This document shows positions 13,619 to 64,000 of a DNA stretch of 64,000 bases, one piece after another (position 1 is the first letter of the stretch; each line of letters opens with the position of its first letter). The notes below the pieces were generated by a model that did not search any database, was not told the DNA's origin, and saw only the letters and a program-made list of their open reading frames with translations. Source of the stretch: Ignavibacteria bacterium. Lineage in GTDB: Bacteria > Bacteroidota > Ignavibacteria > Ignavibacteriales > Melioribacteraceae. The position numbers were made by a program, and so were the translations under genes. The stretch spans positions 3,241 through 67,240 of the forward strand of contig WPAE01000002.1 of NCBI GenBank assembly GCA_009773205.1. The letters run 5' to 3'.

Positions 13619-13683
13619 TGAATGAATAGATTGAGTTAAAAGATTAAAATCACTATTTTCATGCAGGAAAAAGTATAGAGAAA

Positions 13684-13884
13684 ATGGAAACGATTAAAAA
13701 GAAATATGTAATTGACGAAAACAACAATCAGGTAGCAGTTCAGATTGATATAAAAGCATATCAAAAATTGGAAGAATTGTTAGAGAACTATGCTTTGGTT
13801 GAACTAATGAAAGAAGACAATAGCGAAAGACTCGAAGTACGGGAAGCAAAAGAATTTTATAAAAAACTCCCGAAAGAAAAGTGA
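13684..13884 (+). CDS. Small putative type II antitoxin
   Basis: 66 aa, acidic; KKYVIDENN..VAVQIDI beta-rich N-terminus; GTGA overlap with a RelE-like fragment. Confidence 0.6.
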   Translation: METIKKKYVIDENNNQVAVQIDIKAYQKLEELLENYALVELMKEDNSERLEVREAKEFYKKLPKEK

Positions 13885-13961
13885 AAATTGAGTATAGCAA
13901 GAAATTTTTAAGTGAACTATCTCTTGTTCCACTACCAATAATTGATTTGCCTCATTTATAA
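13881..13961 (+). pseudogene. Truncated RelE/ParE-like toxin (26 codons)
   Basis: GTG-start VKIEYSKKFLSELSLVP resembles RelE N-termini, then an early TAA. Confidence 0.55.
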
Positions 13962-13981
13962 TCTCAAATAAACTTATTCCT

Positions 13982-13989
13982 TATATTTG
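13982..13989 (+). promoter_or_regulatory. Possible Bacteroidota-type -7 promoter element for hicBA
   Basis: TATATTTG matches TAnnTTTG about 47 bp upstream of hicB. Confidence 0.35.
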
Positions 13990-14036
13990 TTGTTAGAAAA
14001 GTAATATGTAATAACTTTATCATAAAGGAATAAAGA

Positions 14037-14261
14037 ATGCGTACAATTCAGTTTACAGCTTTAATTGAACGTGAGGGAAACCAATACGTAGCTTTGTGTC
14101 CCGAATTAGATATTGCAAGTCAAGGCGGTACAGTAGAACAAGCACGCAAGAATTTGCACGAAGCTTTAGAACTGTTTTTTGAAACAGCTTCAAAAAAAGA
14201 AATTAAACAACGTCTTCATAACGAAGTTTTTATAACCCGGTTGGAAGTAGCAGTTGGGTAA
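14037..14261 (+). CDS. hicB: HicB-family antitoxin (short)
   Basis: FTALIEREG..YVALCPELDIASQGGTVEQARKNLHEALELF. Confidence 0.9.
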   Translation: MRTIQFTALIEREGNQYVALCPELDIASQGGTVEQARKNLHEALELFFETASKKEIKQRLHNEVFITRLEVAVG

Positions 14262-14475
14262 GTTAAAGTTACTTTCCGCAGAGCAAGTCTGTAAGATTCT
14301 GTCTAATCATGGTTTTGAGAAAGTTCGTCAGAAAGGAAGTCATATAATAATGCAGAAGAAAACTGGTGATTCAACAACCACAGTACCTGTCCCAAACCAT
14401 AAAGAAATTTTAATTGGAACGCTTAAATCAATTATCAGACAATCACAAATACCTGCTGCTGAGTTTAAGAACTAA
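14254..14475 (+). CDS. hicA: HicA-family toxin (mRNA interferase)
   Basis: KILSNHGFEKVRQKGSH, TVPVPNH..IGTLKSIIRQ. Confidence 0.92.
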   Translation: MGKLKLLSAEQVCKILSNHGFEKVRQKGSHIIMQKKTGDSTTTVPVPNHKEILIGTLKSIIRQSQIPAAEFKN

Positions 14476-14513
14476 CCTATAATCTTCGTTGTTAATCAAA
14501 TAAGAAAACAGAA

Positions 14514-54270: not shown

Positions 54271-55093
54271 AGCACACGCTAAGATCAATATTGGTTTAGA
54301 TGTCTTGTCTAAACGCGAAGACGGCTTTCATAACCTAAATACATTGTTTTACCCGATCCTCGATCTATTCGATACACTTTATTTTGAGCGTTCAGATAAA
54401 TTCGAGTTCAAATGTGATTCTAAATCTATCCCAACTGATAGCTCTAATCTTGTTGTAAAAGCTGTTAAGTTGTTAGAAGATATTAGTGGAAAAAAACTTA
54501 CTGCAAAGGTAGAATTGCACAAAAAAATACCTTCACAAGCTGGTTTAGGCGGCGGTAGTTCTGATGCAGCTGCTACTTTAATTTCATTGAATGAAATGTT
54601 TCAACTTGAAATTAAGTACGAACAAATGTTAGAACTTGCTCTCGAACTTGGCTCCGATGTTCCTTTTTTCATAAAAGCAAAACCAGCTATAGGAAAGTTA
54701 CGTGGTGAAATTCTTGAGTACGTAGAACTTTTCATTGAAGAGCCGATTCTAATTGTGAATCCGTGTATTAATGTTTCCACTAAAGAGGCATTTTCATACA
54801 TTCAGCCAAAGGATACTGCAACAGAATTTAAAAATCTAATAGTAAATGAAAAATTAGACTACTCTAAATGTAGATCTGTAGTCAAAAATGATTTCGAGAC
54901 ACCGGTTTTTAATTTGCATCCACAATTACAACAAATCAAAAAGGAATTTTACAATCAAGGAGCTTTATTTGCTTTGATGTCCGGAACCGGCTCTACTATG
55001 TATGGAATTTTCCCGGATTTGAGTTCTGCCGAATCTGCAAGATCGAGAATGGATTCATCTTATTTCTGTTTTATGAGTACTCCTCACTTGTAA
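54251..55093 (+). CDS. ispE: 4-diphosphocytidyl-2-C-methyl-D-erythritol kinase
   Basis: AHAKINIGL, KKIPSQAGLGGGSSDAA, LGSDVPFF, MSGTGS. Confidence 0.96.
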   Translation: MKFIEIKAHAKINIGLDVLSKREDGFHNLNTLFYPILDLFDTLYFERSDKFEFKCDSKSIPTDSSNLVVKAVKLLEDISGKKLTAKVELHKKIPSQAGLGGGSSDAAATLISLNEMFQLEIKYEQMLELALELGSDVPFFIKAKPAIGKLRGEILEYVELFIEEPILIVNPCINVSTKEAFSYIQPKDTATEFKNLIVNEKLDYSKCRSVVKNDFETPVFNLHPQLQQIKKEFYNQGALFALMSGTGSTMYGIFPDLSSAESARSRMDSSYFCFMSTPHL

Positions 55094-56492
55094 CTGTATC
55101 TATTTCCAGTCCAGCTTTTTTATAAGGCAGTTTGATAATTACAGTTGTCCCCGGTGAATCGGCATTTCCAATTTTTGAAGGACTTATGATAGAAATTTCT
55201 CCTTGATGTTTGACAATAATTTCGTGAGTAATTGAAAGCCCCATACCACTTCCTTCAATTTCCGATTTCTTAACATTAGTAGCTCTATAGAAATGCAGAA
55301 AAATATCCTTTTGCTCTGGTTCCGGAATCCCAATTCCATTATCGCTTATTTCAATAAATAGCAATTCCTTTTCATCGGTTAAGATGATAAATATTTCTCC
55401 GTTCTGTCTTGAGTATTTTATTGCATTAGATATAAGATTTGATAGAGCTAATTCCAATAGCATTGGGGCGCCATATAAATCACATTTTTCTTTCCTCTTA
55501 TCGCTAAAACTCAGCATTATATTTTTCTCTTCAATATCTTCTAAACGAACATCAAGTATGTTTTTTATTAACTCTTCAATTCTAACTAATTCATTATTCT
55601 TAATATCCAGCAGTTTGATTCTAGAAAATCTGAGAATATCGTTGATAAGAGATATAGCTTCATCGCTTCTCAGCCTTGCGCGCTGAAGTTTATTAGTAAT
55701 CTCTAAATTTACCGGGCCTACATAGTTTCCAAGAAGGAGATCAATAATTGATTTAACAGCAATGACCGGAGATTTAATTTCATGAACTACACCAAGTGTG
55801 TATCTCTGTTTAGTGTTTTCAGCTTCTTTCAGCTTTTCAAGAGAATCTCTTAGCTGCTGCTCTCTCTTAAACAACTGCCTTGAAATCTTGTTGGTTATGT
55901 AAACACTTACAAATAGTGTAAATGAAAATGTAAGAACATATATCAGATCGTATTCTGATGAGAGAAAAGTAGAACTTTGAATAGTGCCAATGATTTTATG
56001 GCTTGGAATAATAAATAAATATTCTAAGTACAGCAGAACAACTAAGCTGATAGAAATAATTGCTGCGGCAGTATAAACTAAAAAGCCGGGCAATATCATA
56101 CTGCCAATTATCATGTGAAAAACAAATAACATAATTAACGGCGAATCAATTGTACCTGTAAAGTAAACAAGTAAAAGCAATTCCATTAAATCTAAAACCA
56201 TCATTATAAGAGAAGTGTGTAAACAGTTGAATTTATTTGGGCTGCAGCCAATACGTAAACGAAAAACATGAATAATTATATTATAAAAAAGAATTGTTAC
56301 TGCTATAATTAGTATGGCAACAAACTGAATTTCACTTAATCTGAAACTAAACAGATAGTTTACTATTAACAGAAATGCTATTAAGATTACTACAGCTAAG
56401 TATCGTAATCTTATAAACCACAAATTTCTGACCCTTATTGCTCTCCAGAACTCACCGTAATGGTGCGCCCAATCCGGTACAAGCGAAAGCAT
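55071..56492 (-). CDS. Integral-membrane sensor histidine kinase
   Basis: About five N-terminal TMs; H-box HEIKSP, N-box NLISNAIKY, DNGIG, GSGMGL. Confidence 0.9.
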   Translation of the reverse strand: MLSLVPDWAHHYGEFWRAIRVRNLWFIRLRYLAVVILIAFLLIVNYLFSFRLSEIQFVAILIIAVTILFYNIIIHVFRLRIGCSPNKFNCLHTSLIMMVLDLMELLLLVYFTGTIDSPLIMLFVFHMIIGSMILPGFLVYTAAAIISISLVVLLYLEYLFIIPSHKIIGTIQSSTFLSSEYDLIYVLTFSFTLFVSVYITNKISRQLFKREQQLRDSLEKLKEAENTKQRYTLGVVHEIKSPVIAVKSIIDLLLGNYVGPVNLEITNKLQRARLRSDEAISLINDILRFSRIKLLDIKNNELVRIEELIKNILDVRLEDIEEKNIMLSFSDKRKEKCDLYGAPMLLELALSNLISNAIKYSRQNGEIFIILTDEKELLFIEISDNGIGIPEPEQKDIFLHFYRATNVKKSEIEGSGMGLSITHEIIVKHQGEISIISPSKIGNADSPGTTVIIKLPYKKAGLEIDTVTSEEYS

Positions 56493-56660
56493 ATCTATCT
56501 CAATTGAATGAATGTGCTATTCAAATTATGTTCAATATAACTTATGTACTCACTTTGCGCAAGAGAATCTTAGTGTAGACCCCAAATGAAACAATGGCTT
56601 TCTTTTGTAATGCGAGTAAGAAAGAAATTGTATTATAAACTAATTTTCTTTTTGCTACAT

Positions 56661-56693
56661 AAAAAACAGGCTCGGCAATACCGAGCCTGTTTT
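56661..56693 (-). terminator. Rho-independent terminator after hydA
   Basis: Stem aaaacaggctcgg / ccgagcctgtttt with 5-nt loop; T-tract on the minus strand. Confidence 0.88.
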
Positions 56694-56696
56694 GTT

Positions 56697-58613
56697 TTAG
56701 GCAATATATCTTCCACGTTTTACATAGTGAGTATGCAGTAATTTATGCGACTTATGACCGCAAGGTCCATCGGTAAAAAATTCTTCATACAATTTAACTA
56801 CGTTTGGATTATCGTGAGCTTTGCGTACTTGAAGCGATTCATCTTCCGAATAAATTGCTTGCGCACGTTTCTTACGAATTTCTGGTGTTGTTGGTATTGG
56901 CTGCCCGCCGCCGCCTAAACAGCCGCCTGGACAAGCCATAAATTCTATGAAATGACATTCGGAGAATTTACCGCCTGCTTTAATATCATCCATAATCTTT
57001 TTAGCATTTGCAGTACCGTGTGCCACAGCAACTTTAAGCGTTACACCTTTAAGCCAATCCCAGTTTGGAACTAAGTGTTTAATAACATCGGGAACCGGTC
57101 CAAATTTTTCTCCAAGAGGCAGCTCTACATATTTAATTCCTTCGAAACCTCTAACAGGAGTAACGTTGGCATTTGCAAAAGCATCTTCCGTTTTATTGCC
57201 GGTTATAAATTCATAGATAGAGCGGATTGCAGCTTCCATAACACCGCCTGTAGCACCAAAAATTAATCCGGCGCCAGAAGCTTCGCCAAACGGAGAGTCG
57301 AAATCACTCTTTGGCATTTCCGGTAAATTAATTCCCGCTTCTTTAATCATCCGAGCTAATTCGCGGGTTGTTAAACCATAATCAACATCTTTGTAACCGC
57401 TGTCATTCATTTCGGGTCTGTTGCACTCATATTTTTTTGCAGAACAAGGCATAACAGCTACAGAAACTATGTCTTCTGGTTTTACACCAGCTTTTTCTGC
57501 GTAAAAAGTTTTTATTAATGCGCCAAACATTTGCTGCGGAGATTTTGCAGTTGAAAGATTATCAATTTGTTCTGGATAATAATGCTCTAAGAATTTTACC
57601 CATCCTGGTGAACAAGAAGTGAATTGTGGAAGTGCAACGGGTTCTTTTTGAACTATTGCTTTGTAAAGACGGAGAACTAATTCCGTTCCCTCTTCAAAGA
57701 TTGTTAAATCAGCTGTAGTATTTGTATCGAATACTTTATCGAAACCAATTCTACGCAAAGCTGTGTTTAATTCTTTTGTTAGAGAATGCCCTGCTTCCAT
57801 TGCAAATTCTTCGCAGATAGCCGCACGTGGCGATGGTGCTGTTTGAATTACAACATGCTTAGCCGGGTCATCAATAGCAGCCCAAATTTCATCTGATGGA
57901 TCGTTTGCGCGGAGTGCAGCCGTTGGACAGCGGTTAATGCATTGCCCGCAGTTTATACAAATTACATCAAGCAGAGGCTTATCTAAAAAAGTGCTTATGC
58001 GTGTATTATGTCCACGCTCTACAGATTCTAGAACACCAACTTCTTGTAAATCAATACATGTTCTAACGCATCTCTTGCAAAGAACGCATTTACTCATATC
58101 TCTTATAACAGAATAAGAAGATTCATCAAGTTCGTATCGCGGCGCTTCTACATGTCCAAAAGTAAAATTATCAACTCCATACTCTTTAGCTAAATACTGA
58201 AGTTCGCATTTGCCGTTTCTTAAACATGAATAGCATTCGCCGTAATGCTCACTTAACATCAAATCAATTATATGGCGGCGTGCTTTGCGTACAGAAGGCG
58301 TGGATGTTTTAATTTTAATAGGCGAAGTAATTGGATAAGCACAAGAAGCCTGAAGCGTTCTCATTCCTTCTACTTCTACAACGCAAACGCGGCATACACC
58401 GGCAACGCACAAATCTTCATGATGACAAAGTGTTGGAACTGTAATTCCATTCATTTTGCATGCATCAAGAATTGTTGTGCCAAGTGGAACAGTAACTTTC
58501 TTTTCATTTATCTCTATTGAAATTGTTCCGCCTATGTAAGAAGGATCAACCGGTTTCTCAATAACGAGGGGCTTCTGGCTAACCGGAGCTCTAAGTTTAC
58601 CTTTATTTTCCAT
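56697..58613 (-). CDS. hydA: [FeFe]-hydrogenase catalytic subunit (group A, multimeric)
   Basis: [2Fe-2S] TLC..CRVC, His-ligated H..EC..C..C, 2x[4Fe-4S] CVLCKRC / CINCGQC; H-cluster motifs FTSCSPGW, MPCSAKK, EFMACPGGCLGGGG. Confidence 0.95.
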   Translation of the reverse strand: MENKGKLRAPVSQKPLVIEKPVDPSYIGGTISIEINEKKVTVPLGTTILDACKMNGITVPTLCHHEDLCVAGVCRVCVVEVEGMRTLQASCAYPITSPIKIKTSTPSVRKARRHIIDLMLSEHYGECYSCLRNGKCELQYLAKEYGVDNFTFGHVEAPRYELDESSYSVIRDMSKCVLCKRCVRTCIDLQEVGVLESVERGHNTRISTFLDKPLLDVICINCGQCINRCPTAALRANDPSDEIWAAIDDPAKHVVIQTAPSPRAAICEEFAMEAGHSLTKELNTALRRIGFDKVFDTNTTADLTIFEEGTELVLRLYKAIVQKEPVALPQFTSCSPGWVKFLEHYYPEQIDNLSTAKSPQQMFGALIKTFYAEKAGVKPEDIVSVAVMPCSAKKYECNRPEMNDSGYKDVDYGLTTRELARMIKEAGINLPEMPKSDFDSPFGEASGAGLIFGATGGVMEAAIRSIYEFITGNKTEDAFANANVTPVRGFEGIKYVELPLGEKFGPVPDVIKHLVPNWDWLKGVTLKVAVAHGTANAKKIMDDIKAGGKFSECHFIEFMACPGGCLGGGGQPIPTTPEIRKKRAQAIYSEDESLQVRKAHDNPNVVKLYEEFFTDGPCGHKSHKLLHTHYVKRGRYIA

Positions 58614-59799
58614 TGTTACCTCCGTTATTGAAAATTTCTTCTTTGAAGTTTTCTAAGATTGATAAAAATGCGTTTGGGCTTGATTGACCTAAGCCGCACT
58701 TGGATGAAAGCTGCATTGTTTTGCCAAGTTCTTTTAGTTTGTTGATGTAGCCGAAAGTGTATTCATGCCTCTCAAGCATTTCAACTCCTTCTAAAAGTTT
58801 TACATTTCCTATTCGGCAAGGTGTACATTGCCCGCAAGATTCTTCAACAAAAAATTCCATAAAGTTTTTTAACACATGAAGCATATTTCTACTTTCATTA
58901 AATATCATAATAGAACCGCCGGTTGCAGCATCTTCGTAGCCAAATATTCTTTCGAATTGAGATTTTGGAATGCAAATACCAGAGGCACCTCCAACTTGTA
59001 CGGCTTTTGTGTCTTTAGCTTCAACAAGTTTTAGCAGCTCAGATATTTTTGTTCCCCAAGGCAATTCGTAAACTCCAGGCTTATCGCAATCGCCGCTAAC
59101 AGAAAATAATTTTGAACCGGTTGATTTATCTGTACCATGTTTGCAGTACCAAGAACCGCCTTTAATAACAATATGAGCAACTGAGGCAAAAGTTTCTACA
59201 TTATTAACGGTTGTTGGCTTTCCCATAAAACCAGTGTTTACTGGATAAGGCGGGCGGTTGCGTGCTTCGCCGCGGTTCCCTTCAAGAGACTCAATCAATG
59301 CAGTTTCTTCGCCGCAAACATAAGCGCCGCTGCCAAGACGAATTTTAATGTCAAAATTAAAATCTACTTTGCCGCAAATATTTTTGCCGAGCAAGTTTTC
59401 TTTACGCATCGTCTCTAAATAATCTTCTAAAGATTTTAACATGTACTCGTATTCGCCGCGTAAATAAACTATGCCAAGCTTAGCGCCAATTACATAACCG
59501 GCTATTACCATTCCGTCAAAAACCAATTCGGGATATTCGAGCAGCAGAACTCTATCCTTAAATGTTCCCGGTTCACCTTCATCTGCATTACATACTACAT
59601 ATTTTTCTTCAGCAGAAGCTGCAGCTACTAAAGTCCATTTTGTTGCTGTTGGAAATCCTGCACCGCCTCTTCCCTTTAGTTTTGATTCGCGAAGTTCAAA
59701 TAAAATATCTTCACGTTTTAAAGAGACTGCTTTAATTATTGATTCACCTTTAATGTAAGGCGAGAATATTACAGATCCTTCTCTATTTTTCTTTTCCAT
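58603..59799 (-). CDS. hydB: NuoF-like diaphorase subunit, short form
   Basis: GRGGAGFP, NADEGEPGTFKDR, YVCGEETAL, ESCGQCTPCRIG..CGLG; ends right after the single [4Fe-4S] domain. Confidence 0.92.
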   Translation of the reverse strand: MEKKNREGSVIFSPYIKGESIIKAVSLKREDILFELRESKLKGRGGAGFPTATKWTLVAAASAEEKYVVCNADEGEPGTFKDRVLLLEYPELVFDGMVIAGYVIGAKLGIVYLRGEYEYMLKSLEDYLETMRKENLLGKNICGKVDFNFDIKIRLGSGAYVCGEETALIESLEGNRGEARNRPPYPVNTGFMGKPTTVNNVETFASVAHIVIKGGSWYCKHGTDKSTGSKLFSVSGDCDKPGVYELPWGTKISELLKLVEAKDTKAVQVGGASGICIPKSQFERIFGYEDAATGGSIMIFNESRNMLHVLKNFMEFFVEESCGQCTPCRIGNVKLLEGVEMLERHEYTFGYINKLKELGKTMQLSSKCGLGQSSPNAFLSILENFKEEIFNNGGNNGK

Positions 59800-59807
59800 T
59801 CTTCACC

Positions 59808-60281
59808 TCACTTAATCGCGTTTAATATTTGTACAGCTTTTTCGGTAGATACTTTTGGGAATACTCTTTCATTAACAAGTAATGCAGGACCTTGATCGCA
59901 CATTCCTAAACAGTTAACATATTCGAGAGTAATTTTGTTATCCTTTGTTGTTTCTCCGAACTTAATTCCGAGTTCTCTTTCGATTGCTTTAGCAACACTT
60001 GCTTTGCCTGCTATATCGCAAGTAATTGTCTGGCAGAGACGAACTATGTTTCTTCCTTTCGGGTTAGTGTTCAAAAAAGCATAGAAAGAAATTACGCTGT
60101 AAACTTCAACCGGATGAATATCTAGCAGGCGTGCAATTTCTTGTTGAGCGAAATCTGGAACGTGTTTATGCTTTCTTTGAATATCCTGAAGAATTGGTAA
60201 AAGTGCCGAACGTGAATTGCCATGTTCCTTAACAAGCAATTCTATCTCTTCAGTCATAGCATTTTTTTCTAGTACAAGCAT
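59808..60281 (-). CDS. hydC: NuoE-like [2Fe-2S] subunit
   Basis: VYSVISFY, CQTITC, NCLGMCDQGP. Confidence 0.92.
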   Translation of the reverse strand: MLVLEKNAMTEEIELLVKEHGNSRSALLPILQDIQRKHKHVPDFAQQEIARLLDIHPVEVYSVISFYAFLNTNPKGRNIVRLCQTITCDIAGKASVAKAIERELGIKFGETTKDNKITLEYVNCLGMCDQGPALLVNERVFPKVSTEKAVQILNAIK

Positions 60282-60664
60282 TATATTTTCTCCCCAACTT
60301 TGTTAAGTAATGTTTCTACTTTAGCAACCAATTGCTCTGGAGAAATTGGCTTTTCAACAAAGTCATCCACAGGCACCATTTCGCTCTTGTTAAAATCCAT
60401 TCCTATTGCTTTAGATACAGAAGTGTACATGAGAATTGGTGTGTGAATATTTTCTCTTCTTAACTTTTGAGCAAGAAAGAACCCATCATCAGGCTCATCC
60501 ATCATAACATCAAGAATAATTAAGTTTGGTTTTCTTTCCTCAATAATTTTGAAGCCATCCGTTGGGTTAGATGCTGTAACAACATCGTAGCCTTTCGATT
60601 TTAACACTAGCGAGCTGGCGTCCAGAATATCTGGATCGTCGTCGATAATAGCTATTAGCGCCAT
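60281..60664 (-). CDS. Single-domain response regulator
   Basis: IDDD, LDVMM phospho-Asp, TS, EKP; no output domain. Confidence 0.92.
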   Translation of the reverse strand: MALIAIIDDDPDILDASSLVLKSKGYDVVTASNPTDGFKIIEERKPNLIILDVMMDEPDDGFFLAQKLRRENIHTPILMYTSVSKAIGMDFNKSEMVPVDDFVEKPISPEQLVAKVETLLNKVGEKI

Positions 60665-60678
60665 AGCTTTCTCCTTTT

Positions 60679-62166
60679 TTAGTTCTGATTTATTGGTAAG
60701 TGAATTGTGAACGTAGTTCCGTAACCGAAAACAGATTCTACTTCGATTTTTCCGTAATACGACTCGACAATTTTTTTAACTATTGATAAACCTAATCCTG
60801 TACCACTAATGCCGCGGGTCTTTTCATTTTTTGCGCGATAAAACTCGTTGAACAATCTGTCTTTTTCTTCCGGCTTCATACCAATTCCGGTATCGCGAAT
60901 TTTTATAGAGACATAACTGTTTTCTTGATGCGCAATAATGTAAATAGAGCCGCTTTCTTTATTGTATTTTATAGCATTGCTAATCAGATTTGTGAACAGA
61001 CGGGTAATTTCACTTACATCAGCTTTAATAATCGGAAGGTTTTCTTGAATATTAGTATCAACAACAATTTCTTTTTTCTTCAGTTCAAATTCTAAGAATT
61101 GTAAAGTACTCTTTATAGTTTCTATAATATTTACATTTTCAATTTCACGATGCTTGGTTTTCAATTCCATTCTAGAAATATCGAGAAGATCATTAACAAG
61201 GTCTGTTAAACTTCTGAGCCGAACCGTAGATCTTGTTAAATATTCTTTCTCTTTTTCCTTATCAACACCAAGAGAATCGTCCAAAATGATATTTATAAAA
61301 CCCTGAACTGCTGCAAGCGGAGTTTTAAGCTCGTGAGCAACCATAGAAACAAATTGAGATTTTATCAGTTCAATCTTTTTGAACTGAGTTACGTTGCTGA
61401 GAATTATTACAACTCCAGCTAAACTACCATCCGGATTTGGAACCGGAGTGCAAGCTGCTTCAATTATTAATTCATTATTAGGAAGAATTTCTATTTGAGT
61501 AGTGTAAGTTTTTAGAAGAATTTTTTCTTTAGAGATTATTTTATCTATTATTTCAGAAATTTCTTTCGGGAGTTTCTCAACAACCTTCTCGCCAATTTTT
61601 ACATCTCTAATATTTAGAAAACGAAGAGCAGCATAATTAAAATAAACAAGCTCTTCGTTTCGGTTTATTACTATAACGCCGTCGCTTATTGCTTTAATTA
61701 TTGTGTTGAGCCGGGATTTTTCTGAAGCAAGTTCAAGCAGTTTTTCTTCACGTTCTTGCTTAAGCCGCAAAGCTTCAAGAATTAGTTGGCGCTGTTTTAG
61801 TCCTTGCTCAATTTGATAAATAAACTCTTCTGGTGTAAACGGTTTTGGAATATAGCTATATGCGCCAAGCCGTGTGGATTGAATGGCAGTATCGTAACTT
61901 GCATAAGCAGTTGCTATAAAGCAGATTGTATTAGGGAATGTTGTTTTAATTTCTTTAAGAACTTCCAGACCGTCAATATCCGGCATCTTTAAATCAATCA
62001 CCGCAACATCAAAATCTTTTGATGTTCCTAAACGAATACCTACTTCGCCGCAATCGGCAGTTTCTACTTCGTATCCTTCGTCCTCAAGTAATCTTTGCGT
62101 TCCAATGCGTAAGCCTTTTTCGTCATCAACAATAAGGATACTAGCTTTTTTAACTTGATCAGACAT
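60679..62166 (-). CDS. Hybrid REC-PAS-histidine kinase
   Basis: REC (VDDE, IDLKMPDIDG, PKPF), PAS-like ISDGVIVIN, H-box AHELKTP, NLISNAIKY, DTGIG, GTGLGL. Confidence 0.92.
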   Translation of the reverse strand: MSDQVKKASILIVDDEKGLRIGTQRLLEDEGYEVETADCGEVGIRLGTSKDFDVAVIDLKMPDIDGLEVLKEIKTTFPNTICFIATAYASYDTAIQSTRLGAYSYIPKPFTPEEFIYQIEQGLKQRQLILEALRLKQEREEKLLELASEKSRLNTIIKAISDGVIVINRNEELVYFNYAALRFLNIRDVKIGEKVVEKLPKEISEIIDKIISKEKILLKTYTTQIEILPNNELIIEAACTPVPNPDGSLAGVVIILSNVTQFKKIELIKSQFVSMVAHELKTPLAAVQGFINIILDDSLGVDKEKEKEYLTRSTVRLRSLTDLVNDLLDISRMELKTKHREIENVNIIETIKSTLQFLEFELKKKEIVVDTNIQENLPIIKADVSEITRLFTNLISNAIKYNKESGSIYIIAHQENSYVSIKIRDTGIGMKPEEKDRLFNEFYRAKNEKTRGISGTGLGLSIVKKIVESYYGKIEVESVFGYGTTFTIHLPINQN

Positions 62167-62179
62167 TTATCACATTTTG

Positions 62180-62596
62180 TTAATTGCTTTTTGGTACAAC
62201 CTCGTAAGATTCTAACTTCGATAGCAATTCTTCTACTACAACAGGCTTGTTCAAAATACCGTCACACTTAATCCATTCCCTTTCTTCACTTGTAGATACA
62301 CTAAATTTGTAACCGGTTTCGTAAGTAGCAGAAGTAAGAATAAACACCGGCATTTGCTTTCCGTGTGCAGTTTTTTTGATTTTATAAGCTAGAATAAAAC
62401 CGGAATCCATTTGTTCCATAATTAAATCTATAATAGCCGCATCTGGTTTCTCTTTCTGGAAAACGTTAAATCCTTCTTCTGCACTTTCTGCACTAACAAC
62501 TAGAAAACCTTTTGCTTCAAGCAGCATTTTATTTTGTTCTAATAAATCAATATCATCATCAACAAGCAAGATTTTTTTTACATCAGCTAAGTTCAT
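62180..62596 (-). CDS. Single-domain response regulator
   Basis: VDDD, IDLIM phospho-Asp, TS, NKP; no output domain. Confidence 0.92.
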   Translation of the reverse strand: MNLADVKKILLVDDDIDLLEQNKMLLEAKGFLVVSAESAEEGFNVFQKEKPDAAIIDLIMEQMDSGFILAYKIKKTAHGKQMPVFILTSATYETGYKFSVSTSEEREWIKCDGILNKPVVVEELLSKLESYEVVPKSN

Positions 62597-62609
62597 TTCT
62601 TATATCCTT

Positions 62610-64000
62610 TTAATTCAATAAAACGTTTGTATTTAATTTTACCGGAAATTTAATTGTAAATGTAGTTCCTTTTCCTTCAAGACTTTTAACTCTAATATCA
62701 CCTTTGTGCATTTTTACTATTCCGTAAGTAATAGCTAAACCAAGTCCTGTTCCTTTGCCCATTTTCTTTGTTGTAAAAAAAGGAGTAAATATTTTTGCAA
62801 CATTTTCAGCAGGTATTCCGCACCCGGAATCAGAAATTTCTGCAGTTAGAAATTCTTCGGTGCGCTTAATGTTAACAGATATTTCTTTCTGTTCGCATGA
62901 TTCAACTGCTTCTACAGCATTAACAAGTAAATTGATAAAAACTTGTTTTATCTGATCTCCATCGCCGCCTATAATTGCATCTTCGGTAAGTTCATTTATA
63001 TTAAAAGTTACTCCACTGTATTCTGGATTCAATCTCAAAGTTGATACAATTCCTTTAACTATATCTGCTGCATTAATTGTAGAAATACGGAGTTTACCTT
63101 GTCTTGCAAAATTTAGAAGATTAGAGACAATATTTCTGCATCTGTTAGCTTCTTCCATAATTAATGCTAAGTCTTCGCTATTCTGATTCTCGCCGCCCGA
63201 TTTTTCTAACTTGCGTTTCAGCATTGAAGCATAAAGCATAATTGAACCAAGTGGATTATTAATTTCGTGTGCCACTCCGGCAGCAAGCTGACCAATTGAA
63301 GCAAGTTTTTCAGCGCTGTTAAGCTGCTCATGCGTTTCTTTAATCTCTATGTTAGCGGCTTCAAGTTTATCAATCAAATACGGAAGGCACATATCATCTT
63401 CTGCTAAGCATTTTGCAATGGCTACTGCATAGTTTCTGCAGGTAGAGTATCCGCAAGAGCCGCAATTTAATTCATCGCTCTTGGTTAATTTGTTAGTACG
63501 TAAAAGAATTTCTTTAATCTCTTCTTCACTTGGCATTGGTCTTCTTTGAGGTTTTGATGTAAACTTCCTCTTAAGGTTAACATCTCTTGAGTTAAAGATG
63601 TTACTTTGCCACTCTCGCTTATCCAATGAGTTCAAGTTTTCATTTATGTAACAAACTACTTTTTCTCTTCTCGAATAATAGTTCAAATCGGAGTCTATTG
63701 CCGGTCCATTTATACAGCCTTCGCAGAAAAGTATATCAACAAATTTCGATTTAAGATTACCATTTGCAATTTCTTCTATAATCTCCGTTACTTTAGTTCT
63801 TCCTTCTACAACAATAATATCCTTATGAAGAATATCTTCATTAATATTTGCTGTTTTAAGCAAGCCGCCTACAAGCGGATACGATTTTCCTAAATATGCG
63901 TGTGGTTTGTCAAAATCGGTTTCTTCTAGTTCATCGAAATTTATGTTCTGTTCTCGAAAAATTTTTTTCAGCTCTTTAAATGTTAAAACTGCATCAACAG
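62610..64000 (-). CDS. [FeFe]-hydrogenase-like / Fe-S / histidine kinase fusion (group C1-type putative H2 sensor), 5'-truncated
   Basis: Frame stays open to the window edge (VDAVLTFKEL..); ILFCEGCINGP; CGSCGYSTC..C Fe-S domain; H-box AHEINNP, N-box, G1, F and G2 boxes. Confidence 0.85.
   Translation of the reverse strand, partial: VDAVLTFKELKKIFREQNINFDELEETDFDKPHAYLGKSYPLVGGLLKTANINEDILHKDIIVVEGRTKVTEIIEEIANGNLKSKFVDILFCEGCINGPAIDSDLNYYSRREKVVCYINENLNSLDKREWQSNIFNSRDVNLKRKFTSKPQRRPMPSEEEIKEILLRTNKLTKSDELNCGSCGYSTCRNYAVAIAKCLAEDDMCLPYLIDKLEAANIEIKETHEQLNSAEKLASIGQLAAGVAHEINNPLGSIMLYASMLKRKLEKSGGENQNSEDLALIMEEANRCRNIVSNLLNFARQGKLRISTINAADIVKGIVSTLRLNPEYSGVTFNINELTEDAIIGGDGDQIKQVFINLLVNAVEAVESCEQKEISVNIKRTEEFLTAEISDSGCGIPAENVAKIFTPFFTTKKMGKGTGLGLAITYGIVKMHKGDIRVKSLEGKGTTFTIKFPVKLNTNVLLN

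Follow-up and report, generated by a model that had tools for sequence, protein, structure and literature searches.

What does a set of histidine kinases and receiver domains do inside an [FeFe]-hydrogenase operon? The question is raised by the minus-strand run of genes that closes a 64-kb stretch of Ignavibacteria DNA (the window, 64,000 nucleotides). A sequence-only reading had proposed a multi-kinase phosphorelay that senses H2 and is wired onto a hydrogenase operon.

Organization and conservation of the cluster

All genes between positions 55071 and 64000 were placed on the minus strand by gene calls and Pfam (Table 1), and the genes, domains, gaps, hydB-hydA overlap, terminator and membrane kinase first read from the sequence were all found again. 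From HydS-HK to HydA2, adjacent genes are separated by gaps of 13, 13 and 14 nt, a 1-nt overlap of the REC2 stop codon with the hydC2 start codon, a gap of 8 nt and the 11-nt hydB/hydA overlap. The terminator following hydA2, a hairpin with a U-tract, has a ΔG of -24.1 kcal/mol and a z-score of -6.5, and 0 of 200 shuffled sequences scored equally well.

Table 1. Features of the hydrogenase and signaling cluster, in order of transcription
Feature	Coordinates	Strand	Evidence
HydS-HK, C-terminal 462 codons	62610..64000	-	Pfam: Fe_hyd_lg_C tail, PF04060 FeS, HisKA, HATPase_c; open to window edge
REC1, stand-alone receiver, 138 aa	62180..62596	-	Pfam Response_reg
RPHK, REC-PAS-HisKA-HATPase hybrid (response-regulator kinase), 495 aa	60679..62166	-	Pfam
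REC2, stand-alone receiver, 127 aa	60281..60664	-	Pfam
HydC2, NuoE-like [2Fe-2S] subunit, 157 aa	59808..60281	-	Pfam 2Fe-2S_thioredx, E 7e-47; NCBIfam NuoE family
HydB2, short NuoF-like FMN/NADH subunit, 398 aa	58603..59799	-	Pfam Complex1_51K + NADH_4Fe-4S
HydA2, catalytic [FeFe]-hydrogenase subunit, 638 aa	56697..58613	-	Pfam Fer2_4, NADH-G_4Fe-4S_3, Fer4, Fe_hyd_lg_C, Fe_hyd_SSU
Intrinsic terminator closing operon	56657..56693	-	14-bp stem then UUUUUUAU
memHK, membrane histidine kinase, PilS-like 6TM domain, 473 aa	55071..56492	-	Pfam HisKA/HATPase

The same contig, matched at 100% identity, runs 5.1 kb past coordinate 64000, and the full unit begins there with a second hydrogenase. Ten genes make up this operon, which is conserved in Ignavibacteriota and of which the window contains the distal two-thirds. 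Their order is hydC1-hydB1-hydA1, HydS-kinase, REC1, REC-PAS-kinase, REC2, hydC2-hydB2-hydA2, and they are trailed by a membrane kinase that is its own transcription unit. The operon first described from the window was therefore right in its genes and their order but incomplete, as its first gene is cut by the window edge (full-length HydS-HK has 663 aa; identical contig L001:4546-6537). Likewise, the linkage of signaling genes to a hydrogenase stands, but the cassette sits between two hydrogenases of different type rather than beside one. Co-transcription, as had been assumed, fits the tight spacing, the single recognizable promoter and the single terminator.

Related loci numbered 80, nearly all from Ignavibacteriota and including cultured species. 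All ten genes occur in order in 44 of them, with most of the others interrupted by contig ends, and memHK follows hydA2 in 38. A core of HydS-HK with REC and/or REC-kinase recurs beside hydABC in relatives only 34–47% identical, and one distant lineage has a memHK homolog next to a HydS-HK of 47% identity. Because the gene order is kept in dozens of species-level genomes together with the phospho-acceptors, the arrangement is not a product of chance, and the conservation expected of a functional unit is strong.

Two hydrogenases of different predicted type

Hydrogenases were typed by the published criteria of PMC7311640. The upstream Hyd1 (hydC1B1A1) bears the marks of an electron-bifurcating enzyme, and Hyd2 (hydC2B2A2) in the window is predicted to be a non-bifurcating, NADH-dependent enzyme. 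HydB2 aligns to residues 136–523 of Acetobacterium woodii HydB and has no extra FeS domains. It carries Tyr where bifurcating HydB proteins carry Phe (Tyr in 47 of 53 orthologs), and GGASG replaces GGPSG and the ferredoxin motifs are missing in all 53. HydA2 passes the NCBIfam model NF040763 for group A6, and its best relative among solved structures is A. woodii HydA (7q4v), with the same L1 motif, TSCSPGW, which is present in 48 of 49 orthologs scanned.

The non-bifurcating NADH-dependent enzymes Syntrophomonas wolfei Hyd1ABC and Syntrophus aciditrophicus HydAB share with HydB2 the absence of extra FeS domains and of GGPSG, the Tyr at the FMN-site position and a Thr at the 232-equivalent. 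Hyd2 differs from them in having Thr instead of Lys, Ser or Ala at the 234-equivalent of HydB2, in the TSCSPGW motif and H-domain insertion of HydA2, and in being co-encoded with a receiver and a bifurcating-type paralog.

HydS-HK, a putative sensor with a kinase transmitter

The first gene, noted earlier as a hydrogenase-like kinase, was identified by Pfam and conserved residues as a sensory [FeFe]-hydrogenase module of the HydS type that continues directly into a histidine kinase. Its orthologs invariably keep the phospho-accepting H445 as well as C138, C186, C293 and C296, the cysteines of the H-cluster. The module has three or four FeS clusters in addition to the H-cluster site and retains the Cx2Cx4Cx16C motif. 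It lacks the proton-relay cysteine and the proton-pathway region: L1 reads SS[P/A/S]CP, M353 is replaced by Gly as in Thermotoga maritima TmHydS (group C/M2f), M497 by Leu as in Thermoanaerobacter mathranii TamHydS (group D/M2e), and the E279/E282 stretch is missing. The last cluster motif lies about 40 residues ahead of the phospho-His. A structure prediction for the protein had low confidence, above all in the linker. The kinase core is nearest to AtoS and ZraS.

These features match the published description of HydS enzymes (PMC8163306). TmHydS and TamHydS have the same two N-terminal [4Fe-4S] motifs, the H-domain with four cluster cysteines and the C-terminal Cx2Cx4Cx16C; in them too Cys299 and the proton pathway are lost, M353 and M497 are changed, and the gene adjoins a trimeric group A hydrogenase. 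HydS-HK differs in having no PAS domain, its FeS motif leading straight into the HisKA/HATPase transmitter, and in its partners, which are receivers and kinases, unlike those reported for the two enzymes. PP2C-type partners occur in other systems. HydS-HK belongs to the known putative group C1 of HydDB, a group defined by clustering alone and labeled 'histidine kinase-linked (putative)', with which it shares the linkage of a histidine kinase to a sensor resembling a hydrogenase. C1 genes adjoin A3 hydrogenases in Hydrogenedentota and lie three genes from hndABCD in Petrimonas mucosa. None of the papers searched describes for C1 a four-protein relay, a two-hydrogenase sandwich or cis-elements like those of the present loci. 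In other proteins the sensor module carries GGDEF, PAS-kinase or kinase-REC outputs or is joined directly with a sigma-54 AAA+ domain and HTH_8, and such varied outputs indicate that it serves as an input domain.

The input could also be O2 or the ferredoxin/NADH redox state rather than H2, which would tie the use of hydrogenases by these facultative anaerobes to anaerobiosis. The additional FeS clusters are compatible with this view, as is the PAS domain contributed by the REC-PAS-kinase, and a Hydrogenedentota study found no H-cluster motifs in its C1 proteins and doubted H2 sensing. Moreover, the Melioribacter roseus proteins are missing from aerobic cells: in published proteomics, MROS_2480–2483 and MROS_2485–2489 were detected in three fermentative replicates and in none of three aerobic ones, MROS_2489 (memHK) thus under fermentation only, and MROS_2484 (REC1) was seen weakly, in one replicate alone (p = 0.37). 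However, the sensor gene sits in this fermentation-only operon, so HydS-HK cannot be the first detector of anoxia. Plain FeS redox sensing would also require neither the H-cluster cysteines nor the L1–L3 framework, all invariant over 60–90% identity, and characterized HydS enzymes bind the H-cluster and react with H2 (PMC8163306). We regard a redox or O2 sensor as doubtful.

Receivers and kinases of the cassette

Three kinases and three REC domains were counted among the cluster genes between 55071 and 64000, and Pfam found no DNA-binding domain among them, in agreement with the earlier count. The phospho-acceptor His and Asp residues are intact in every kinase and every receiver and are kept in orthologs. 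No Hpt domain was found among the cluster genes, and a classical His-Asp-His-Asp phosphorelay was rejected for this reason in favor of a multi-kinase network.

REC1 follows HydS-HK in 79 of 80 loci, conserves the acidic pocket, D57, T/S and K (34 orthologs), and has as its nearest NCBIfam receiver that of GlrR, an NtrC-family protein. RPHK conserves D57, the H-box HELKTPL and the N and G boxes (72 orthologs); its receiver is nearest to NtrC and AtoC and its transmitter to PnpS, WalK and PhoR. REC2, with D52, T and K conserved in orthologs, is nearest to the OmpR-family receivers of RpaB, VanR, MtrA and PhoB. In none of 64 loci do more than 15 nt separate it from hydC2; it remains with hydC2 in rearranged loci, and in one locus (L181) it heads an operon of REC2-hydC2B2A2 only. 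As REC2 always travels with hydC2, it is the best candidate for action on the second enzyme. However, about 10 Ignavibacteriaceae loci keep REC2-hydC2 with no adjoining hydB2A2, a poor fit to simple regulation of Hyd2 by REC2. REC2 could be a phosphate sink.

Several kinases are also encoded together with output-less receivers in the Caulobacter MrrA/LovK-PhyK and DivK and Myxococcus RedCDEF networks, where the receivers are shuttles, sinks or allosteric partners and not transcription factors. The present proteins have no sequence kinship with these past common domains, and differ in their input, a metallo-enzyme module, and in their suspected target, a redox enzyme.

Motors or other proteins are frequent targets of stand-alone receivers, and H2 might likewise be a cue for motility, biofilm formation or another metabolic pathway, the operon location giving co-expression only. 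Sensor relatives with GGDEF outputs would suit such a role, and one distant lineage combines HydS-HK, REC-PAS-kinase and a SpoIIE phosphatase with no hydrogenase nearby. Nevertheless, the linkage to hydABC persists across lineages 34–92% identical, and with the fixed REC2-hydC2 spacing it makes an output unrelated to hydrogenases very improbable.

Promoter and transcriptional control

In most loci a sigma-54-type promoter (-24/-12 element) precedes hydC1, with a conserved dyad, TTCTYA-N4-TARGAA, about 85 nt upstream of the element. Within 2.9 Mb of loci sequence the composite motif has 41 occurrences, every one ahead of hydC1. The search for a DNA-binding regulator was extended beyond the window, and neither a response regulator carrying an output domain nor a sigma-54 activator was present within 10 kb in any of the 80 loci. 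The conserved promoter and dyad without a linked activator suggest that an unlinked DNA-binding activator probably drives the operon. On other contigs the same promoter and dyad stand ahead of an oxoacid:ferredoxin oxidoreductase operon, so transcription may follow a general fermentation regulator and not the H2 relay.

In Cupriavidus necator (HoxBC-HoxJ-HoxA) and Rhodobacter capsulatus (HupUV-HupT-HupR), a low-activity hydrogenase is the H2 sensor that steers a histidine kinase over hydrogenase genes, and in C. necator an NtrC-type regulator serves target promoters that depend on sigma-54. These [NiFe] systems keep sensor and kinase on separate proteins and encode the DNA-binding regulator within the cluster. 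The [NiFe] sensors, HydDB group 2b, have an unrelated metal site and protein family. The present cassette, in contrast, fuses the sensor to its kinase, has two additional receivers and another kinase, and lacks a linked DNA-binding regulator.

On this precedent the relay might end on an unlinked NtrC-type regulator that binds the dyad and activates the sigma-54 promoter, a purely transcriptional feedback with REC1 and REC2 as phosphate sinks or shuttles that do not contact the enzymes. Besides the cis-elements, this is favored by the AtoS/ZraS-like transmitter of HydS-HK, a type usually paired with sigma-54 activators, by relatives that fuse the sensor module directly to Sigma54_activat and HTH_8, and by one unrelated contig where the same composite precedes an operon of a kinase and an NtrC-type regulator. 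Yet no such regulator lies within 10 kb in any of the loci, the cis-element before the oxidoreductase operon suggests a broader regulon, and neither the invariant REC2-hydC2 coupling nor the retention of REC2 in the Hyd2-only operon is explained. Purely transcriptional feedback is therefore unlikely, although it merits consideration.

A putative H2-sensing network between two hydrogenases

We give about an even chance to an H2-sensor relay between a bifurcating and an NADH hydrogenase, with REC2 the likeliest effector on the second and an unlinked transcription activator. Here H2 would reduce the H-cluster and accessory clusters of HydS-HK, and the redox state of the last cluster would set its kinase/phosphatase balance. 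Phosphate would pass to two NtrC-like receivers, REC1 and that of the REC-PAS-kinase, whose PhoR/WalK-like transmitter would integrate a second signal through the PAS domain. The OmpR-like REC2, whose gene is inherited in one block with those of the second hydrogenase, would be phosphorylated by the REC-PAS-kinase, possibly together with memHK, and may act on Hyd2 or its HydC2 subunit. An unlinked enhancer-binding protein at the dyad would turn on transcription of the whole operon under fermentation.

We infer that the cassette senses H2, how phosphate passes between its proteins and that it exerts post-translational control; the wiring draws on gene order and the resemblance of domains to curated families, and post-translational tuning is a speculation prompted by one observation, the invariant REC2-hydC2 linkage. 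As had been supposed, no paper dissecting a cascade of this kind was found in the searched literature, where the cassette architecture likewise appears to be undescribed.

H2 can be produced from NADH only while its level is very low. Sited between a bifurcating hydrogenase and one that uses NADH only, an H2 sensor could choose which of them carries flux, and HydS-kinase with its three signaling partners is a strong candidate for how these bacteria gauge H2 and manage both enzymes.

Genomic organization of the operon

ORF calling identified eight closely spaced genes on the minus strand of the window between positions 55071 and 64000. The first encodes HydS-HK, a HydS-type sensory [FeFe]-hydrogenase module fused to a histidine kinase, and its reading frame remains open up to the window edge. 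Pfam searches bore out the domain assignments made in the sequence-only reading and, as noted there, found no DNA-binding domain in the visible part. HydS-HK is followed by a stand-alone receiver (REC1), a REC-PAS-HisKA-HATPase kinase (RPHK), a second stand-alone receiver (REC2) and the genes of a hydrogenase, hydC2-hydB2-hydA2 (Hyd2). From HydS-HK to REC2 the genes are 13, 13 and 14 nt apart; REC2 and hydC2 overlap by 1 nt, 8 nt separate hydC2 from hydB2, and hydB2 and hydA2 overlap by 11 nt, in agreement with the tight spacing and hydB-hydA overlap described earlier, with 14 nt as the largest gap. A terminator followed by a membrane kinase had also been proposed at the end of this run. Direct folding located a hairpin with a U-tract 3' of hydA2 (dG -24.1 kcal/mol, z -6.5), which an automated terminator scan had missed, and Pfam identified a six-transmembrane kinase (memHK) beyond it.

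The upstream contig completed the operon and changed its reading in one respect. The relay had been placed on a single hydrogenase operon; hydC2-hydB2-hydA2 indeed belong to the same unit, but a second hydrogenase lies upstream of the sensor. The ENA contig ERZ27284381 k139_277263 (L001), 100% identical to the window over 13,322 bases, runs 5,146 bases past window coordinate 64000 and encodes a full-length HydS-HK of 663 aa, with hydC1-hydB1-hydA1 (Hyd1) ending 2 nt upstream of its gene. The full unit is composed of ten genes with gaps of no more than 16 nt, in the order hydC1-hydB1-hydA1-hydS(HK)-rec1-rphk-rec2-hydC2-hydB2-hydA2. Both the ENA contig and an NCBI copy (GCA_009773245.1, WPIH01000003.1) stop about 5.1 kb past the window end, approximately 280-320 nt upstream of hydC1 and just past the promoter, and this shared break of two independent assemblies suggests a repeat or strain variation at that point. 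The remainder of the window, all housekeeping genes, contained neither hydEFG nor regulator genes. A RelB-like and HicA-toxin-like small gene pair followed by an HNH endonuclease gene, placed in the window by homology to L087:13142-13933, was seen among these housekeeping genes.

Location and content of the operon genes and of related features in other loci
Feature	Location	Strand	Length	Content
Dyad and sigma-54-type element	L001:190-290 and equivalent regions of L002-L081			upstream of hydC1
hydC1, hydB1, hydA1	L001:323-4543, beyond window end		162, 662 and 576 aa	Hyd1
HydS-HK, in-window part	window	minus		[FeFe]-hydrogenase H-domain tail, PF04060 FeS, HisKA, HATPase_c (Pfam)
REC1	window	minus	138 aa	receiver (Pfam)
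RPHK	window	minus	495 aa	REC-PAS-HisKA-HATPase (Pfam)
REC2	window	minus	127 aa	receiver (Pfam)
HydC2	window	minus		thioredoxin-like 2Fe-2S (Pfam)
HydB2	window	minus	398 aa	Complex1_51K, NADH_4Fe-4S (Pfam)
HydA2	window	minus		full-length HydA (Pfam)
HydA2 L1 motif	window 57600-57625			TSCSPGW
memHK	window	minus		membrane kinase, PilS-like 6TM domain; 204-nt spacer after hydA2
RelB-like/HicA-toxin-like pair, HNH endonuclease gene	window ~13680-14480			among housekeeping genes
Rearranged loci	L024, L030, L034, L043, L048, L050, L064, L072, L074, L075			REC2-hydC2 apart from hydB2A2
hydF (example)	L044:4197-5435			directly upstream of hydC1
Hyd2-module operon	L181:7980-12210			composite, REC2-hydC2-hydB2-hydA2
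2-Oxoacid:ferredoxin oxidoreductase operon	L177:6450-9369			subunits delta, alpha, beta, gamma
Kinase and NtrC-type regulator	L167:668-4000	minus		histidine kinase, REC-AAA+-HTH_8 regulator

Conservation and rearranged forms

The arrangement is conserved among relatives. In a survey restricted to one genome per species, which gave 80 loci, nearly all from Ignavibacteriota and including Stygiobacter electus, Rosettibacter primus, Melioribacter sp. Ez-97 and a Melioribacter roseus MAG, all ten genes were present in order and on one strand in 44 loci, and most of the others were cut by contig ends. In 79 loci the gene after HydS-HK is REC1, REC2 precedes hydC2 at a distance of no more than 15 nt in every case (64/64), and memHK lies 3' of hydA2 in 38 loci. 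In four loci, the position directly upstream of hydC1 is taken by the maturase gene hydF.

About ten Ignavibacteriaceae loci showed a rearranged form, in which REC2-hydC2 lies by itself upstream of hydC1 on the other strand, with no hydB2A2 alongside, and an intergenic TAnnTTTG-type motif replaces the sigma-54 element. An 86-aa ORF of the CPF_0552 family, weakly TM1266-like, lies between REC2-hydC2 and hydC1 in eight of the ten (not in L034 and L043). Beyond the phylum, relatives with 34-47% identity carry a core of HydS-HK with REC and/or REC-kinase behind hydCBA. One distant relative has two stand-alone receivers, and in another memHK and a SpoIIE phosphatase are present and the hydrogenase is absent. 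At the distant locus L094, Rex precedes hydC, and two radical-SAM genes, the second with a BATS domain, follow the relay in the hydE/hydG position.

HydS-HK as a putative H2 sensor

On the basis of its sequence, HydS-HK shows the published hallmarks of HydS-type putative sensors, which include a non-conserved Cys299 and proton pathway (PMC8163306). All of 12 and all of 20 aligned orthologues retain the four H-cluster cysteines (C138, C186, C293 and C296). The N-terminal cluster motifs, comprising two [4Fe-4S] motifs with Fer4 families matched on the full-length protein, the Cx2Cx4Cx16C motif and the phospho-accepting H445 are likewise invariant in the aligned orthologues. Because the L1 motif reads SS[P/A/S]CP, and not TSCCP as in HydA1, the proton-relay cysteine Cys299 is lost. 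The Glu-rich proton-pathway stretch (EExTE) is absent in alignment to HydA1 and HydA2, and M353 and M497 are replaced by Gly and Leu, respectively. HisKA and HATPase_c domains reside in the same polypeptide as the hydrogenase module, which is the histidine-kinase linkage of HydDB group C1, a group whose role is listed there as 'undetermined'. A protein housing both an H-cluster site and additional FeS motifs could instead read the redox state or O2 and not H2, an alternative that we consider unlikely.

HydS-HK is a member of a large, highly conserved family; its best 120 matches, at 62-92% identity, all share one architecture. TmHydS (group C, subclass M2f) differs in having a PAS domain fused after the FeS motif, whereas Pfam found no PAS domain in HydS-HK; relatives carrying PAS include P0136 and P0194. 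The last cluster cysteine, C405, is located 40 residues before H445, and the stretch between them may be helical. This is a low-confidence assignment, as the AlphaFold2 model of full HydS-HK had a mean pLDDT of 60.6, with FeS regions and linker below 50, and only its helix pattern was used. For the transmitter, the nearest solved structure is ZraS and the nearest NCBI families are AtoS and ZraS. Elsewhere, the sensor module is fused to PAS-kinase, kinase-REC, GAF-kinase, GGDEF or sigma-54 AAA+ with HTH_8. Three such relatives (P0165, P0180 and P0184), in which the fusion partner of the HydS-type module is either a GGDEF diguanylate cyclase or an HTH_8-bearing sigma-54 AAA+ activator, would be one-component H2-to-c-di-GMP or H2-to-transcription devices.

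Two types of hydrogenase flank the sensor

Both HydA1 and HydA2 pass the NCBI group A6 model, and the difference between the two enzymes is found in the beta subunits. HydB1 (~660 aa) begins with a CCxxC 'NuoF prefix' domain (NF040902) and has two C-terminal ferredoxin motifs (63/64), Phe at the FMN-site 367-equivalent position (64/64) and the SLBB motif GGPSG (62/64). HydB2 (~400 aa) aligns to Acetobacterium woodii HydB residues 136-523 only, and has no C-terminal ferredoxin motif (53/53), Tyr at the 367-equivalent position (47 of 53 read) and GGASG in the SLBB motif (53/53). Losey et al. 2020 (PMC7311640) established beta-subunit criteria separating electron-bifurcating from non-bifurcating NADH-dependent [FeFe]-hydrogenases. 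HydB2 shows their non-bifurcating pattern, with no extra FeS motifs, Thr at the 232-equivalent and Tyr at the 367-equivalent position and no GGPSG; its 234-equivalent residue, Thr, is outside the published non-bifurcating set, yet it is not the Met of the bifurcating enzymes. Because HydB2 fits this pattern, Hyd2 is assigned by sequence to the type of Syntrophomonas wolfei Hyd1ABC and is predicted to be a non-bifurcating NADH-dependent enzyme. Features of the electron-bifurcating HydABC (group A3), which Hyd2 lacks, are present in HydB1, and Hyd1 is predicted to be of the bifurcating type, apart from the 232/234 residues, which depart from the published bifurcating pattern.

The L1 motif of HydA1 reads TSCCPGW in 67 of 68 orthologues scanned, as in canonical enzymes. 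In 48 of 49 hydA2 orthologues scanned it reads TSCSPGW, with the Ser aligned to the [4Fe-4S]H ligand Cys300. This substitution was not read as loss of function because the active A. woodii HydA (7q4v) carries the same motif; an inactive or sensory HydA2, which also passes the group A6 model, was therefore rejected.

Phosphotransfer components

HydS-HK orthologues conserve the phospho-His in the H-box and the N and G boxes, and orthologues of REC1, REC2, RPHK and memHK keep their phospho-sites (kinase boxes, or the receiver acidic pocket, Asp, T/S and K). A classical His-Asp-His-Asp phosphorelay was rejected, since Pfam found no Hpt family in any of the eight window proteins; the protein carrying the second His, RPHK, is a full kinase and not an Hpt or a Spo0B/ChpT-like phosphotransferase. 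By NCBI family comparison, REC1 and the RPHK receiver are NtrC-like, the RPHK transmitter is PhoR/WalK-like and REC2 is OmpR-like.

A predicted sigma-54 promoter upstream of hydC1

A -24/-12-type element, TGGCAT-N5-ATGCA, was found 53 nt before hydC1 on the window's own contig, outside the window. The TGGCAY sequence, about 50 nt ahead of the hydC1 start codon, occurs in 52 of 63 loci, with a variable -12 C. In 44 of these 52, a 16-bp dyad, TTCTYA-N4-TARGAA, with a background rate of 0.06 per kb, lies 65-124 nt (about 85) upstream of TGGCAY-N5-WTG. The -24 GG/-12 GC arrangement at fixed spacing, conserved position and upstream site looked for in a predicted sigma-54 promoter are all present at hydC1. 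Counting both strands, 2.9 Mb of locus sequence contained 41 copies of the composite of dyad and element, always before hydC1; none was located before hydS, rec2, hydC2 or memHK in that sequence. This exclusive position is in line with a single sigma-54 promoter on which an unlinked enhancer-binding protein acts. Inside the window, one further sigma-54-like match and one dyad match were dismissed as being at chance level and lying in coding sequence. A search with the sigma-70 consensus found no more sites than chance would give (35, with 43 expected). The dyad was also considered as a Rex operator and rejected, being unlike the Rex consensus, and Rex was linked only in one distant relative.

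Nor was a DNA-binding regulator found around the operon: within 10 kb of the 80 loci, neither a response regulator carrying an output domain nor a sigma-54 activator was detected. The search involved clustering of flanking ORFs from the 80 loci, Pfam analysis of recurrent ones, a scan for GAFTGA and Walker A motifs, and inspection of receivers longer than 165 aa, and otherwise gave HydF (in four loci) and unrelated genes.

A metagenome scan for the composite returned mostly noise, together with at least nine further hydC1 promoters. Among the metagenome matches listed, L181 has the composite directly before REC2-hydC2-hydB2-hydA2, and the cation-efflux gene upstream of it is one that in 20 other loci borders the ten-gene cluster; L181 thus appears by gene content to be a natural operon of the Hyd2 module only, retaining REC2. 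In at least three metagenome contigs (L132, L177 and L190), a four-subunit 2-oxoacid:ferredoxin oxidoreductase operon begins 46-47 nt downstream of the composite, which hints at a shared fermentation regulon. The unrelated high-GC contig L167 has the dyad, with a perfect TGGCAC-N5-TTGC, ahead of genes for a histidine kinase and an NtrC-type regulator; this arrangement may be chance or may point to the activator family reading the dyad. In the main rival to the mechanism proposed below, the unlinked activator is the end point of the relay, with REC1 and REC2 acting as sinks. The promoter pattern is in line with this rival, which does not account for the retention of REC2 in L181; we regard it as less likely.

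Expression in Melioribacter roseus

The M. roseus cluster was assigned to MROS_2480-2489 by annotation order and synteny of the M. roseus MAG. The genome paper of this organism described its three hydrogenases as bifurcating throughout and left the regulators undiscussed. A multi-omics paper placed hydrogenase subunits among the proteins found only under fermentation, and its supplementary table shows the same pattern for MROS_2483, 2485, 2486 and 2489, each with signal in three of the replicates and none in the remaining three; MROS_2484 is listed in one replicate only. These proteomic data represent co-expression and are not proof of one transcript. Runs matching the window's operon, only DNA metagenomes and one thin run of unspecified type, showed no junction reads. 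As to annotation, the sensor-kinase orthologue MROS_2483 is named a 'sigma-54 dependent transcription regulator', which looks like a misannotation, and at MROS_2487 hydC2/hydB2 is annotated as a fused beta-gamma subunit.

Proposed mechanism and significance

NADH-driven H2 formation is established to require an H2 pressure no higher than a few to tens of pascals, and a cell with both enzyme types therefore needs H2 sensing. We propose that H2 would reduce the clusters of HydS-HK and shift its kinase/phosphatase balance, and that HydS-HK would serve both NtrC-like receivers, REC1 and that of RPHK. RPHK, perhaps with memHK, would in turn serve the OmpR-like REC2. Because REC2 is never parted from hydC2 and heads the Hyd2-only operon, its proposed target is the NADH-only Hyd2 or its HydC2 subunit. 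For its transcription, the operon would belong to a fermentation regulon under the control of a sigma-54 activator encoded elsewhere. A more specific version, which we consider unlikely, is that REC2 is a phosphorylation-controlled, dissociable subunit of Hyd2, so that HydS-HK, through RPHK and REC2, would switch Hyd2 on or off post-translationally while Hyd1, produced from the shared transcript, carries the flux at high H2. If true, this would be a two-component system with redox-enzyme activity as its output and the first signaling pathway of an [FeFe] H2 sensor to become readable.

As annotations, group C1 sensors and their adjacency to group A hydrogenases are already known. According to reviews and recent studies, the role and signaling of HydS are still unclear, and characterized HydS proteins have no proven partner. 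The searchable literature yielded no description of the ten-gene cassette, of the pairing of bifurcating and non-bifurcating enzymes around the sensor, of the REC2-Hyd2 unit or of the sigma-54 promoter with dyad. The parts of the system are ordinary, and its architecture is distinctive. Because the sensor and a standard kinase form one protein, autophosphorylation compared with and without H2 would serve as the read-out, and candidate partners encoded beside it ease dissection. The system is unusually tractable because the cluster is present in the cultured M. roseus, S. electus and R. primus. Finally, the Hyd1/Hyd2-type pairing around the sensor offers a testable hypothesis, that fermenters tune electron disposal to H2 partial pressure, a relationship central to syntrophy and subsurface carbon turnover.
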